This document shows positions 1-58,583 of a stretch of 64,000 nt of DNA, piece by piece. The position numbers and the translations under genes are program-made. Under the pieces are notes generated by a model that was given only the letters and a program-made list of their open reading frames with translations, was not told the origin of the DNA and did not search any database. Origin of the DNA: Candidatus Sulfomarinibacteraceae bacterium (lineage in GTDB: Bacteria > Acidobacteriota > Thermoanaerobaculia > Thermoanaerobaculales > Sulfomarinibacteraceae); contig CAWCLO010000004.1 of the NCBI GenBank assembly GCA_963796455.1, forward strand, positions 224,001 through 288,000, read 5' to 3'. Positions within the stretch are counted from its first letter, which is position 1; each line of letters starts with the position of its first letter.

Positions 1-391
1 GACGGCTGCACCACCATGGTGGTGCACGCGTCTCGCGTGCACATGGTTGAACCGCAAAGAACGCAAAGTCGCAAAGACGCAAAGACGCCAAGGCGCGGTT
101 GGCGAGATTGTGGGGGGTGCCATAAGTGTCGGCAGATCGACAGACGATCTCCGATCGCCCGTCGCCGGTGAGAAGCGGGGCGCCTCCGATCGCCAGCGCT
201 CGGAGTCACCCCGCTCCCCACCGCCCGGCACGCCTACGGCATGCCGGATCTGCCTTGTGTCGGTGACACCCTTTCTTGATTGAAGATGAGAGGAGGAAGA
301 AGGCGAGACCTGCGCGGTCGCGCAGGACCTCGCCGGGCGGAGGATTCTACCGGGACGTCCTCTGCGTCTTTTCGACTTTGCGTCTTTGCGT
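1..391. repeat. Non-coding structured repeat, direct-repeat sister of 61214-61680 (truncated by window start)
   Basis: 1-~330 aligns by eye at high identity with 61214-61529, and 327-391 with 61615-61680; contains REP palindromes and CGCAAAGA/CTTTGCG units. Confidence 0.9.
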
Positions 392-493
392 CACTCTTGT
401 CCAAGACTGCGTCTCAGACAGCGATCAGCGTCAGCGAACAGTAGTCAGCGAACAGGAGTCAGCGTCACGTATGACTGGTATGGAGCCCTGAAA

Positions 494-847
494 TCAAGAC
501 TCTGGGTTGAGTAAACGCCAGGTCATCGCACGGACTTGATCGAAGGCGTTCATCGCATCAATGGCTCCGTTCGGGCTGATCGCCCCGGCGTGGGCGAGGA
601 GCTGCAAGTGGCTGTCGACCTCTTTCGCCGAGGCGTAGGCGATTCTCCAGTGATTCGACCGGTCTCTACCGACTCGGCCGTGCCCTTCTGCCAGATTCGC
701 AGGGACCGAACTTGCCGACCGGATCACCTGATCGGCTATGGATTTCAGCGGAGCCGGAACCCTCATCACGAGCTTGATCGCGATTCCTGCCGCTTCGAGG
801 GCCTTCGAGTGGGCAACGAGGTTGGTGTTCGTGTCGGCTGAGGACAT
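494..847 (-). CDS. Four helix bundle protein (23S rRNA intervening-sequence protein / Avd-like family), 117 aa
   Basis: Motif DQVIRSASSVPANLAEGHGR...IAYASAKEV; ATG at 847 with GGAGGTG RBS. Confidence 0.9.
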   Translation of the reverse strand: MSSADTNTNLVAHSKALEAAGIAIKLVMRVPAPLKSIADQVIRSASSVPANLAEGHGRVGRDRSNHWRIAYASAKEVDSHLQLLAHAGAISPNGAIDAMNAFDQVRAMTWRLLNPES

Positions 848-984
848 GGTCACCTCCGGGTCGTTCATGCCCATACCCACAAGCCGGTGAGGCGGCCGAT
901 GTCAAGGATGCCCTGCACCCTGCTTGTCCTTGACATCGGCCGCCCACCGGCTACCCCTTCCTTGGAACGACCCGGAGGTGGCCA
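847..984 (-). promoter_or_regulatory. Nested RNA hairpin leader sequestering the RBS of the four-helix-bundle gene
   Basis: 847-866 is complementary to 965-984 (19/20); inner 26-bp stem with one bulge at 882-952. Confidence 0.7.
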
Positions 985-1443
985 CTTCGTCGCCTGTAAT
1001 CCTGACCGCTGCCGCTGCCGCTGCCGCTGATCACTGAACACTGATCGCTGTTACCTGTCGCTGCCCCTGGACTCTGTCGCTGCCGCTGCAATTCGGGATC
1101 GGGAACGGGTAGGGGCCAACCGCGAACCGGATATGCCAAAAACCAACCCGTAAACCACGTGTTGTCAGGTGGGAAGCTTCAGGTGACGATCTGTTTTGGA
1201 CAGCAGCGTCTTTGCGTTAAAACCTCGAGAGGCTGAGGCCGTTTTTTGCAGAGGTGGCTGATGGCGCTGCAACCGGGCTGTCATGTGCGTCGATCTGCGT
1301 GATCTGCGGGCAATTTGAGCGGTTCTTCCAACGGCTTTTTTTCTGGGTGCCTCTGTGGTTTTCTCGGGAAGGCCGTGTGGCATACCGTTCGCGGGCCTGC
1401 CCTGATATTCTCTCCCCTGCATTTCGCACCGGGGGGATTCCAG

Positions 1444-4400
1444 ATGAAAGCTCGTTGGCTCGTTTCTTTGGTTGTTTTATTGGCAGCTTCGGCGACCTTT
1501 GCCGAGGTCTCTGATGAAGTTCTGAATTCACTTTCCTACCGTCTGGTCGGCCCCTTTCGCGGCGGTCGCGTCACCGCGGTGACCGGAGTGCCGGGTGATC
1601 CGTTGACCTACTACATGGGCTCGACGGGAGGTGGTGTGTGGAAGACCACCGACGCCGGCAAGACCTGGAACAACGTATCGGACGCGGTCAGGATGCTGGA
1701 GCCGAAATCCGAGCCCGAAATCATGGGCGAGGTCGACCCCGCTCTTTCCGAGCTGGGTCTGCTGCGACCCCCGATCGGTGGTCTGCCGTCGGATGTCGAA
1801 TGGGAGCAACGCCCCGGCGACGCATTCGGTACCGCCTCCATCGGAGCGATCGCGGTCGCCCCTTCCGACACCAACGTGGTCTACGTCGGTACCGGTTCGG
1901 CCTGCCCGCGCGGCAACGTTTCTCCGGGCGACGGAATCTACAAGTCGGTCGACGCCGGTTCCACCTGGCGTCATATCGGACTTCCCGAGGCCGGTCAGAT
2001 CGCCCGGATCGTCGTCCATCCGACGGATCCGGATGTGGTCTACGCGGCGGTCCTGGGTCACATCTTCGGCCCCAATCCGGAGCGTGGGGTTTATCGTTCG
2101 ACCGACGGCGGTCTGAGTTGGTCGAAGGTCCTCTTCGTGTCCGACGAGGCCGGAGCGGTCGATCTTTCGATGGATGCCTCCAACCCGCGGGTGCTCTATG
2201 CCGCCATGTGGCAGGCCAAACGTTTGCCCTGGACAATGGTGTCCGGAGGCGCGGGAAGCGGCGTCTACAAAACCACTGACGGCGGCAACACCTGGGTCGA
2301 ACTCACCGAGGGGCTGCCCGAGGGGACCAAAGGGCGGATCGCCGTGGTGGTTTCACCGGCCGCGTCGAACCGCGTGTGGGCCCTGGTGGAGGCTGAGGAC
2401 GGTGGGCTCTTCCGCTCGGACAACGGCGGCAAGAAATTTCGCCGCGTCAGCAAGAGCCGCGATCTGGTTCAGCGTGCCTGGTACTACACCCACATCGAGG
2501 CGGATCCGAAGAACGCCAACACGGTCTATGTCAACAACGTCATGTTTTGGAAATCTGTTGACGGCGGCAAGAGCTTCCGCCCGATCCGGACCCCTCACGG
2601 CGACAACCACGCGATGTGGATCAACCCGGATGATCCGGCCAACCTCATTCAAGCCAACGACGGTGGCGCCAACATCAGTTTCAATGGTGGGCGCACCTGG
2701 TCGGTGCAGTCGAATCAGCCGACCTCCGAGATCTATCGCGTCACGGTGGACGACCAATGGCCCTACTGGCTCTACGGCGGCCAGCAGGACAACTCGGCCG
2801 TCGCCACTCCGAGTCGTGCCCCGGGCGGTATCGCCTGGCGTGATTGGTATGCCCCGGCGGGCTGCGAAACCGCCACAGTCGCGGTCGATCCGCGCAATCC
2901 GAACATCACCTATGGAGGCTGCTATGGAGGTTCCATCGGTCGCCACGACCGAGAGACCGGGCACGAACAGAACATGATGGCGTGGCCTCAGATGGCGGTT
3001 GGTCAACAGGCCAAGGATCTCAAGTACCGCTTCCAGTGGAACGCACCGATCCGGATTTCACCCCACGATCCGTCGATTCTCTACCACACGGCGAATATCG
3101 TGTTGAAATCCACCGACGAAGGCAGAAGCTGGACGGAGATCAGTCCGGATCTGACCCGTGACGACGAGTCGAAACAGGGTTATGCCGGCGAGCCGATCAC
3201 CCGCGACAACACCGGGGTGGAGGTCTACGGCACCATCTTTGCCTTTGAAGAGTCGCCCCATCAGGCGGGTCTGCTCTGGGCGGGCAGCGACGACGGACTG
3301 GTTCATATCTCGTCCGACGGCGGCGCGAGTTGGAGCGATATCACACCGGTCGATATGCCGGAGTGGGGGACGGTCAATGCCATCGAGCTCTCGGCTCATG
3401 ACGCCGGCCGGGCCTTTCTCGCCGTCCAGCGCTACCGCCAGGACGATTTCACCCCGTACATCTTCCGCACCGATGACTTTGGCAAGAGCTGGTCGATGCT
3501 CAGCAACGGCTCCAACGGCATTCCCGCCGATCATTTTGTCCGCGTCGTACGCGAAGATCCCGAACGTGAGGGTCTGCTCTACGCCGGCACCGAGTTCGGG
3601 CTCTATGTGTCATTCAACGACGGCACGAAATGGCAGCCGCTGCAACTCAATCTGCCGGTTACCCCGATCACCGATCTCGCCGTCAAACGTGGAGATCTGG
3701 TGGTGGCGACGCAGGGCCGGTCGTTCTGGATCCTGGATGATTTGACCGTTCTGCATCAGCTGACCGAAGACGCGGCTGAGGCGGACTTCCACCTCTTCAC
3801 GCCTCGCACCGTTGTACGGTGGGTCGATCAATCGGGCGGCGGTGGACGCGGTGCGGTGGGACAGAACCCGCCCTTCGGCGCCACGATCCACTATGTCCTG
3901 CCGAATGGCATGGGCGAGAAGGATGCCGACGAGGTGACCCTCGAGATCCTCGACGCTTCGGGAGAGGTGCTGCGAAGCCTTTCGAGCAAGACCCCTGAGA
4001 AAGTCGCACCAAGCCCCTGGCGGCAGATGTTCCCGGAGCTCTTCGAACCGCTTCTTTTGAAGGTGCGGGCCGGCGCCAACCGCTATGTTTGGAACCTGGC
4101 TCTGCCCGATGCGGGCTTGGTTGACGACGCGGTGGTTTGGGGCTCCCCGGGGGGGCCGACGGTTCCGCCGGGCTCCTATCAGGCACGGATGACGGTGGGC
4201 GACTGGAGCAAGACGACTTCGTTCGAGGTTGTCCAGGACCCGAGGCTCGATGTTTCGCAGGAGGCCGCCGATCAGCAGTTTGCTCTGGCCTCAGCGATCT
4301 GGAGAGAAATCACCCGTTCACACGACGCCATCAAACGGATCCGGAAGATCCGTGATCAGGTCGAGACCATCGCCGAACGGATGGACGACGAGGCGATCAC

Positions 4401-4707
4401 AGAAAAGGCTGGGGAGATCAACGAGGCTCTGACCTCGATCGAGGAGAAAATGCGCCAGGTCAAGAGCGAGGTGGGCCAGGACGTGCTCAACTTCCCGCCA
4501 CAGATCGACAATCAACTGGTTTACCTCCAGGGTGTCGTGGAGAGCACTGTCGGCGCCCCGCTGCAAAGCTCTCGCGATCGATTCACAGAGCTCGAGACCG
4601 AGCTTAATGGTTACATCGCGGACCTCGATGCGATCGTCGAGGAGCGGGTGGCGGAATTCGAGGGGATGCTCGAAGCAGCCGATCCCCCGCGCATCGCGGT
4701 CGACTAG
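1444..4707 (+). CDS. Secreted BNR/Asp-box repeat beta-propeller protein (VPS10/sortilin-like, glycosyl hydrolase-like)
   Basis: Signal peptide MKARWLVSL...; GPFRGGRVTAV; many S/T-x-D-G-G-x-T/S-W Asp boxes; C-terminal coiled coil. Confidence 0.9.
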   Translation: MKARWLVSLVVLLAASATFAEVSDEVLNSLSYRLVGPFRGGRVTAVTGVPGDPLTYYMGSTGGGVWKTTDAGKTWNNVSDAVRMLEPKSEPEIMGEVDPALSELGLLRPPIGGLPSDVEWEQRPGDAFGTASIGAIAVAPSDTNVVYVGTGSACPRGNVSPGDGIYKSVDAGSTWRHIGLPEAGQIARIVVHPTDPDVVYAAVLGHIFGPNPERGVYRSTDGGLSWSKVLFVSDEAGAVDLSMDASNPRVLYAAMWQAKRLPWTMVSGGAGSGVYKTTDGGNTWVELTEGLPEGTKGRIAVVVSPAASNRVWALVEAEDGGLFRSDNGGKKFRRVSKSRDLVQRAWYYTHIEADPKNANTVYVNNVMFWKSVDGGKSFRPIRTPHGDNHAMWINPDDPANLIQANDGGANISFNGGRTWSVQSNQPTSEIYRVTVDDQWPYWLYGGQQDNSAVATPSRAPGGIAWRDWYAPAGCETATVAVDPRNPNITYGGCYGGSIGRHDRETGHEQNMMAWPQMAVGQQAKDLKYRFQWNAPIRISPHDPSILYHTANIVLKSTDEGRSWTEISPDLTRDDESKQGYAGEPITRDNTGVEVYGTIFAFEESPHQAGLLWAGSDDGLVHISSDGGASWSDITPVDMPEWGTVNAIELSAHDAGRAFLAVQRYRQDDFTPYIFRTDDFGKSWSMLSNGSNGIPADHFVRVVREDPEREGLLYAGTEFGLYVSFNDGTKWQPLQLNLPVTPITDLAVKRGDLVVATQGRSFWILDDLTVLHQLTEDAAEADFHLFTPRTVVRWVDQSGGGGRGAVGQNPPFGATIHYVLPNGMGEKDADEVTLEILDASGEVLRSLSSKTPEKVAPSPWRQMFPELFEPLLLKVRAGANRYVWNLALPDAGLVDDAVVWGSPGGPTVPPGSYQARMTVGDWSKTTSFEVVQDPRLDVSQEAADQQFALASAIWREITRSHDAIKRIRKIRDQVETIAERMDDEAITEKAGEINEALTSIEEKMRQVKSEVGQDVLNFPPQIDNQLVYLQGVVESTVGAPLQSSRDRFTELETELNGYIADLDAIVEERVAEFEGMLEAADPPRIAVD

Positions 4708-12442: not shown

Positions 12443-12489
12443 ATACCGGGTGTCGGTGCCCCGTTTCCGCGCCCGTGCCCCTGTCCCTG

Positions 12490-12575
12490 CCCGAATTGCA
12501 GTGGCAGCGACAGTGTCCAGCGTCCGCGACTGCGATCAGCAATCAGGGGCCGAGGCAGCATCAGCGACATCGTTC
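12490..12575. repeat. Fragment of the TIR-element family (CAGCGA-type array)
   Basis: CCCGAATTGCAGTGGCAGCGACAGTGTCCAGCG matches ~38477-38509 and the reverse complement of ~1066-1097. Confidence 0.7.
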
Positions 12576-12719
12576 AGTCGGACTGGTATGGAGATTCTAA
12601 ATTCTTGAAAATAGGCCTATTCAGGGCTGTTTTCCCGGTTGAACCGGATCGAATCCGTCCGTGCGAATTTCGGCAATCGGACTTTTTTCGGGTCCACGGC
12701 CGTATTACACTGCACGCCC

Positions 12720-38359: not shown

Positions 38360-38574
38360 CAGTGTTGTCCGAACCGAATCGTGATCTGAAGATGCCCGAT
38401 TGACACCACGAGGGTTCGGGGTTGGTTTTTGGCATATCCGGTTTGCGGTTGGGCCGTACCCGATCCCGATCCCGATCCCGAATTACAGCGGCAGCGACAG
38501 TGTCCAGCGACAGGGACAGGCAACAGCGACAGCGAACAGTGATCAGTGATCAGTGATCAGCGGCAGCGATCAGG
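38360..38574. mobile_element. Truncated inverted copy of the TIR-element family
   Basis: Starts CAGTGTTGTCC; reverse complement of the 990-1208 arm including GGTTGGTTTTTGGCATATCCGGTT. Confidence 0.75.
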
Positions 38575-38619
38575 TACATCCACCGCGGCCCATCGAAAGC
38601 GGTACTTTGTCGGCCGTGC

Positions 38620-58128: not shown

Positions 58129-58583
58129 CATTGCTGTCCAAGACGGAGTCTCAGACAGCGATCAGGAACAGCGTCAGAGAACAGGATTCAGCGGCAGCGA
58201 TCGTCGTCAGCGTCAGCGACCAGTGGCCGGGACAGCGAACAGCATTCACTTCTTCGGGTTCCGGCCTTTGTGGTGCGGCCGTCTCGGCCGCACGGTGTGC
58301 AGGCGAGACGCCTACACCACAACGGCTGTTCCTTCTGTTGAACCACCCGGAGGAGGCCACTTCGTCGCCTGGACTCCTGATCGCTGCCGCTGAACACTGA
58401 TCGCTGAACCCGGTCGCTGCTCCCTGTCGCTGTCGCTGGAAACTGTCGCTGCCGCTGCAATTCGGGATCGGGATCGAAATCGGGTACGGGCCAACCGCGA
58501 ACCGGATATGCCAAAAACCAACCCGTAAACCACGTGTTGTCAGGTGGCTAACTTCAGGTGGCGATCTGTTTTGGACAGCACTG
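58129..58583. mobile_element. MITE-like gene-less sibling of element 392-1208
   Basis: TIRs CATTGCTGTCCAAGACGGA vs rc CAGTGCTGTCCAAAACAGA (16/19); flanks ATCCGCAAT (58120-58128) and ATCCGAAAT (58584-58592); 58488-58547 identical to 1113-1172. Confidence 0.85.
58268..58322. repeat. REP doublet (REPIN-like), GTGG type
   Basis: Two inverted GTG-GTGnnnnCG-TCT-CGnnnnCAC palindromes. Confidence 0.8.

Follow-up and report, generated by a model that had tools for sequence, protein, structure and literature searches.

Structure of the Element and Its Flanks

In the window, by which we mean the whole 64,000-nucleotide stretch of DNA analyzed here, an 817-bp element occupies positions 392–1208, starting with CACTCTTGTCCAAGAC at its 5′ end and finishing with GTTTTGGACAGCAGCG at its 3′ end. 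It is bordered on both sides by TCTTTGCGT, the two 9-bp copies of a target duplication (383–391 and 1209–1217, both +). From left to right, the element consists of a left terminal inverted repeat that equals the left end of an IS4-family element (392–407, +); an arm of CAG-type 6- to 8-nt repeats that lies 3′ of the gene and pairs with the right arm (418–467, +); a four-helix-bundle gene for 124 amino acids (PF05635/TIGR02436; 494–868, −); an inner leader hairpin with a covarying stem and TTGACA in each arm (883–951, −); a mirror arm pairing with codons 1–8 and a GGAGGT motif (965–991, −); a CTG-type repeat arm 5′ of the gene (1002–1090, +); a subterminal stretch aligning to the right end of the IS4 element (1083–1192, +; score 65, the maximum of 300 shuffles being 58); and the right terminal inverted repeat (1193–1208, +). 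The host of the cassette is another dispersed repeat, whose left part covers 41–391 (strand unassigned) and which resumes after 1217. This host repeat (41–391 and 1218–1310) is present in about 30 copies and has octamer arms around inner hairpins. A large secreted glycosyl-hydrolase-like gene directly downstream (1444–4707) is kept in most congeners.

The original prediction of an 817-bp element with defined ends and a flanking duplication was correct in its segment, ends and flanks. An alternative 12-bp reading of the direct repeat was not: it arose only because this copy ends in GCG and most copies in GTG (the termini here are CA..CG, the family norm CA..TG), and 9 bp is the length among 91 two-ended copies. 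The doubt that the left duplication could be a chance product of a low-complexity tract is answered by flank comparison, as elsewhere the host repeat has a single 9-mer ahead of identical downstream letters, a paralogous unfilled form. An orthologous empty site was found in none of the 24 congeners searched by the right flank, where matches were mostly to the downstream gene; the empty sites found were all of the paralogous kind. The joint 383–1246 in run X1 resembles a further copy of the host repeat, and one RNA run (word share 0.05) gave 8 contigs on the window and no evidence of transcription.

Both ends recur at 58129–58583 (+), as had been noted, although the duplication there has one mismatch. 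This copy belongs to a gene-less subfamily, with a REP-like palindrome in place of the gene and the inner hairpin. A short remnant at 12471–12578 and another at 38361–38578 are listed with no strand given.

Copy Number and Target Sites

A profile of the element run against the 5.02-Mb source assembly gave 243 merged loci covering 113 kb, or 2.3% of the DNA, and the genome further contains 271 target arrays. With end profiles we located 194 left and 116 right ends, which form 96 pairs; the 91 pairs without a nested end made up the clean set. Among these 91, the 9-bp duplication was exact in 22 and within one mismatch in 43 (shuffled flanks gave 2.0 and 7.8, respectively), with two or more mismatches in the remaining 48; exact duplications at other lengths from 5 to 13 bp numbered zero. 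Arrays of GATGCTG/CAGCATC were the site of 57 clean copies, and the 34 copies outside such arrays included 2 exact duplications and 10 within one mismatch. A long reading frame was open across the site in 9 of 91 copies, compared with 165 of 300 random sites, and the cassette sites are intergenic. Nine copies had a reversed flank on one side, a pattern that suggests exchange between element copies.

Loss of the right end is far commoner than loss of the left (98 left and 25 right ends are unpaired), and many copies stop 50–120 bp before the right end. We rejected 5′-truncated retro-insertions as an explanation, as no duplication was seen at the break in the 103 unpaired left ends that were inspected. 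Copies with two left ends in inverted orientation, found at C1:610714–611495, C3:57141 and C3:329664 of the source genome, probably arose by recombination between arms.

An IS4-Derived Outer Shell

The end pattern was found in 11 of 25 genomes of the genus. In the congener G017, the same ends enclose an intact 1411-bp IS4-family element with CA ends, whose transposase matches DUF4372 and DDE_Tnp_1 (NF033592, 251 bits) and has Y(2)R(3)E(6)K readable in translation; about 110 bases of the window element, internal to its right end, align with it. The flanks of this IS4 copy are unequal, with no duplication, and among 41 related IS loci, many of them cut by contig ends, 7 have such ends and exact 9-bp duplications. 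The row for IS4Sa in the available part of PMC2266710 lists CA ends, 1150–1750 bp, an 8–10 bp duplication, and DDE and YREK motifs; by size, CA ends and the YREK motif, the parent element appears to fit this group.

The cognate IS4 transposase was found neither in the source assembly, which is 90.5% complete, nor in four end-rich congeners; the congener transposase as a query had no match in five genomes, and none of 20 long pairs of terminal inverted repeats in the source genome enclosed an autonomous element with these ends. The lone DDE_Tnp_1 match of the source genome has other ends and was rejected as the cognate transposase. The broken DDE_Tnp_1 element at C7:290807–292340 has repeated ends unrelated to the cassette.

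The congener G006 carries the identical cassette type, with exact duplications in 15 of 30 fetched copies, and in G021, G008, G020, G024, G012 and G016 the same ends hold other, palindromic cargo. Four loci in the first three of these (L045–L048) are MITEs with the same IS4 ends and REP-like palindromes inside, and G021 has many end pairs about 387 bp apart, also IS4-ended MITEs.

Mobile insertion cassettes, as described in the available part of PMC6199540, have two IS4-family inverted repeats and one or more passenger genes, range from ~700 bp to 3 kb, and are moved in trans. The window element has two IS inverted repeats, no transposase inside, a single passenger gene within its 817 bp, and a duplication of the same length as in the parent IS. 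The 9-bp duplications, the same-ended IS4 element in a congener and the lack of a transposase of its own make the outer shell a mobile insertion cassette, presumably moved in trans. A non-autonomous unit moved by an IS4-like transposase had been anticipated and is borne out by the G017 ends and the duplications; that the shell was an undescribed system is not, as mobile insertion cassettes are a known kind. MIC231 of Bacillus cereus (IS231/IS4) shares the IS4-family repeats, the absence of a transposase and the single passenger (PMC6199540, available part). In contrast to MIC231, the window cassette has ends of the IS4Sa and not the IS231 type, reaches ~200 copies per genome that are recombinant and ~10% diverged, and carries a passenger that is itself structured, repeat-flanked and also taken up by ISL3 ends.

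The Gene as a Passenger

By tblastn, the source genome has 101 matches to the gene, 59 of which span it nearly completely; of the latter, 36 have both element ends and 4 have none, and of those with a single end 13 keep the left and 6 the right. Roughly three quarters of the element loci are without a full gene (59 of 243 have one), and 60 of the 194 left ends lead into one common REP-like palindrome replacing the gene and the inner hairpin. Clean copies of this gene-less subfamily had exact duplications in 9 of 29 cases and duplications within one mismatch in 16, the corresponding numbers for clean gene-bearing copies being 8 and 17 of 34. Because the gene-less subfamily is of similar size and has equally good duplications, and because these ends enclose different cargo in congeners, TIR-bounded jumps do not need the gene, which travels as a passenger. 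The description of this gene as the only cargo holds for the window copy, but most copies are without it and the congener ends hold other cargo.

The REP-like palindrome has 147 matches genome-wide, 61 of them more than 500 bp from any cassette end, and the source genome has six matches to Y1 transposases. MITEs and REP/TIR repeats (RAYT/TIRYT) are likewise abundant, non-autonomous intergenic palindromes (PMC3733652, available part), and the gene-less subfamily is a plain MITE with a REP-like palindrome; unlike REP/RAYT systems, it has DDE-type ends and a 9-bp duplication, not HUH signatures. Neither four-helix-bundle genes nor heptamer arrays are mentioned in the available part of PMC3733652.

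A Structured Core with Several Wrappers

The open reading frame at 494–880 (−) scores 53.9 bits against PF05635 (cut-off 33.8) and 55.5 against TIGR02436 (cut-off 24). Alignment with 11 relatives places the conserved start at the ATG at 868; a second in-frame ATG at 847 lies behind GGAGGT in most lineages, though not in G040. Among solved structures, XCC0516 (2GSC, five chains; E 0.001) is the nearest relative, and with a pI of 7.0 the protein is not basic. In the predicted fold the arms close around the gene, and codons 1–8 are buried under the mirror arm. Folding z scores of −7.3 for the whole element (20 shuffles) and −8.3 for the leader (200 shuffles) support the nested folding of the repeat arms that had been proposed from the sequence. 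Across 38 leaders, both sides had changed in 22 of 35 pairs, against 0 of 500 shuffles, although kinship inflates such counts. Rfam gave only hairpin-like microRNA matches far under the cut-off.

Ten sampled congeners have arms, leader and gene without the IS4 ends. Of 12 copies in G014, 9 are bounded on both sides by ends of a different, ISL3 type, with an 8-bp duplication that is within one mismatch in 7 of the 9. In G008, 8 of 11 fetched copies have the core in ISL3 ends; they are 822–823 bp long with a median identity of 99.6% and five exact duplications and, judging by this similarity, are a young burst. An intact autonomous ISL3 element bears the same ends as the ISL3-wrapped cores; at the ISL3 locus of G008, considered as the cognate, the cassette ends were not seen. 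At a further locus (L236), an intact ISL3 element (947–2250) lies ~170 bp from a core copy (2420–3186) keeping one ISL3-type end. Of the best 80 metagenome loci, 7 were dropped for want of a usable start; among the 73 usable ones, a strict count, which supersedes a looser one of 35, found an ISL3 end at 24 (control 0.2), an IS4 end at 2, and neither wrapper at 10 with full flanks. In G040, a genome of a different family, hexamer arrays surround the core and no IS4- or ISL3-type ends were seen; its gene is often in convergent inverted pairs (for example, C393:1585–2468, C26:2461–3310 and C500:376–1281), and the arrays run the same way on both sides of the gene. A third recurrent context (L297, L303, L305 and L310) has the motif CCCCGAAGGCCGGG near one or both sides of the core, possibly a further wrapper. 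As judged from these distributions, the core is older than the IS4 shell and was picked up independently by IS4 and ISL3 ends.

Repeat arms extend beyond the cassette. In the source genome, each of the four other PF05635 genes is flanked by inverted arrays built from a unit of its own. Among the best 30 phylum-wide loci, 28 had full flanks, and of these 24 had inverted shared repeats (control 7 of 55) and 21 had arrays on both sides (control 0 of 55), the arrays being built of 7–9-mers. The main target array of the cassette, GATGCTG, flanks another clade of PF05635 genes in G015 and in G006, and a close variant does so in G020; all nine members found of this clade have related heptamer arms, mostly of the GATG type, although these are close kin and so do not bear on co-evolution. 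The arrays precede the cassette, because G015 has 357 array matches and no exact IS4 end. The cognate gene of the GATG arrays was not found in the source genome at E 1e-25, despite 255 pattern matches, and array abundance and presence of the cognate gene gave no clean match across genomes. The idea that the cassette spreads a protein and its own repeat substrate together holds in part: gene and inverted repeats do occur as a pair, as a trait of the whole family that predates the shell.

Selection and Recombination among Gene Copies

The 59 gene copies have a median identity of 90%, and only one contains an internal stop. We measured selection by variant frequency classes. Variants found in at least three copies comprised 101 synonymous and 33 nonsynonymous changes (pN/pS 0.09–0.15), and private variants 39 and 72, plus one stop (pN/pS 0.6–0.7); the contrast between the classes is strong (Fisher P = 3e-10). 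Within-genome dN/dS was 0.13, 0.17, 0.21, 0.11 and 0.25 in five genomes with 59, 17, 11, 5 and 24 ungapped copies, respectively, and 0.12 at a dS of 0.56 between the source genome and G006, both IS4-wrapped. The shared variants are under purifying selection and the private ones nearly neutral. Of the pairs of informative sites, 57% were incompatible, increasing from 0.45 to 0.62 with distance (P = 0.0005), although part of this could be repeated mutation, and 11 of 56 nodes in the tree of copies were well supported. From the selection pattern and the incompatible sites, the copies are mosaics in which working proteins are favored among the spreading sequences.

Such a pattern could also result from selection at the level of the host: the protein would benefit the host, for example by binding repeat-bearing transcripts or hairpins, conversion would spread variants among the 59 copies, and harmful ones would be purged once present in several. 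Near-neutral private variants, synonymous shared ones and recombination do fit a multigene family under conversion, and the arrays and element loci in the genome are many (271 and 243). We nevertheless consider this reading unlikely, given that about three quarters of the loci are without a full gene, that copy number varies from 0 to ~60 among congeners, and that growth of E. coli was unaffected by the Coxiella homologue (PMC4990558, available part). Distinctly less probable is that the gene is now idle and that recombination brought in its synonymous diversity from older units, unwrapped and selected elsewhere. Unwrapped cores exist (the 10 of 73 metagenome loci and G040), the private variants are near neutral and the translation start is buried in the predicted fold, but a dN/dS of 0.12 between two IS4-wrapped sets and of 0.17 within the younger G006 set, with an internal stop in 1 of 59 copies, argue against it. 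The least probable, and for TIR-bounded jumps largely refuted, is a retro-type or autonomous element, in which the Avd-like protein acts with a reverse transcriptase or moves the unit itself: the kinship with Avd, a pentamer that binds an RNA stem-loop (bioRxiv 10.1101/2023.10.23.563531, available part), and the excess of left over right ends (194 and 116), as 5′ truncation would give, are outweighed by the absence of RVT_1 matches in the source genome and of adenine bias (21 private changes from A at 84 sites, 44 from C at 120), by truncated copies without duplication at the break, by gene-less copies that jumped too, and by ends and duplication lengths that track the wrapping IS (9 bp for IS4, 8 bp for ISL3).

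Discussion

The cassette is real and mobile in origin, its shell of a known kind and its core unexplained. The closest described relatives of the core are the intervening sequences of 23S rRNA. That of Coxiella has a terminal stem, GACAGAT heptamers before the start and poor translation (PMC4990558, available part), and the window element shares with it the protein family, a terminal stem around the S23p-family gene, short tandem repeats 5′ of the start and, probably, poor translation. In contrast to these intervening sequences, the cassette lies between ordinary genes and not in rRNA (the rRNA motifs on C10 gave no PF05635 match), is bounded by IS ends and target duplications, and carries a gene under purifying selection and not in decay. 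Avd of diversity-generating retroelements forms a pentameric barrel similar to S23 proteins and binds an RNA stem-loop (bioRxiv 10.1101/2023.10.23.563531, available part). A pentameric ring may be expected here from family membership (PMC4990558 and the same preprint, available parts), yet, unlike Avd, the protein is not basic, and the element has no reverse transcriptase, template, variable repeat or adenine-biased change; RVT_1 is absent inside it as in the rest of the genome.

The reading that we favor, and hold to be reasonably probable, has two layers, a shell derived from IS4 and moved in trans and an older, repeat-flanked gene core whose protein is favored among copies. The shell is an IS4-family derivative that kept both ends and has no transposase, and a cognate DDE transposase acting in trans would have spread it; its insertions gave the 9-bp duplications, mostly in GATGCTG heptamer arrays between genes, and the transposase would since have been lost from the source genome or gone unassembled. 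The core of inverted arms, hairpin leader and gene was captured by IS4 and ISL3 ends independently. Through its arms the transcript may take the form of a long rod, like that of rRNA intervening sequences, with the mirror arm holding translation low, and the protein, ring-shaped if it resembles its family, most likely binds the repeat units of its own clade as single-stranded nucleic acid. Copies with a working protein would contribute more to the family, most likely as recombination donors, and we propose that shared variants stay synonymous for this reason.

The pairing of gene and mirror-image repeats across related bacteria hints at an undescribed selfish unit. More tentatively, as a rather doubtful extension of the two-layer model, PF05635 genes with clade-specific inverted 6- to 9-mer arms could be widespread units of this kind, in which the ring recognizes its own repeat, favors copying of its unit and sheds gene-less arrays as RAYT sheds REPs; the arrays would then be targets of insertion sequences, which capture the unit, and copies that landed in rRNA would be the intervening sequences known there. 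The literature searched, with most subscription journals and supplements outside its scope, contained nothing on such cassettes or on family-wide repeat arms.

Where ORF-bearing intervening sequences come from and what their protein does are questions decades old, and an old idea held that the ORF served mobility (PMC4990558, available part). The same type of gene in a high-copy cassette separates the two questions, as jumps need only the IS ends and the protein is yet selected. The protein also tracks a specific repeat, and the system offers a defined protein, a defined candidate ligand that varies naturally, and a transposase that is likewise defined; the core is a possible source of dispersed short tandem repeat arrays in bacteria.
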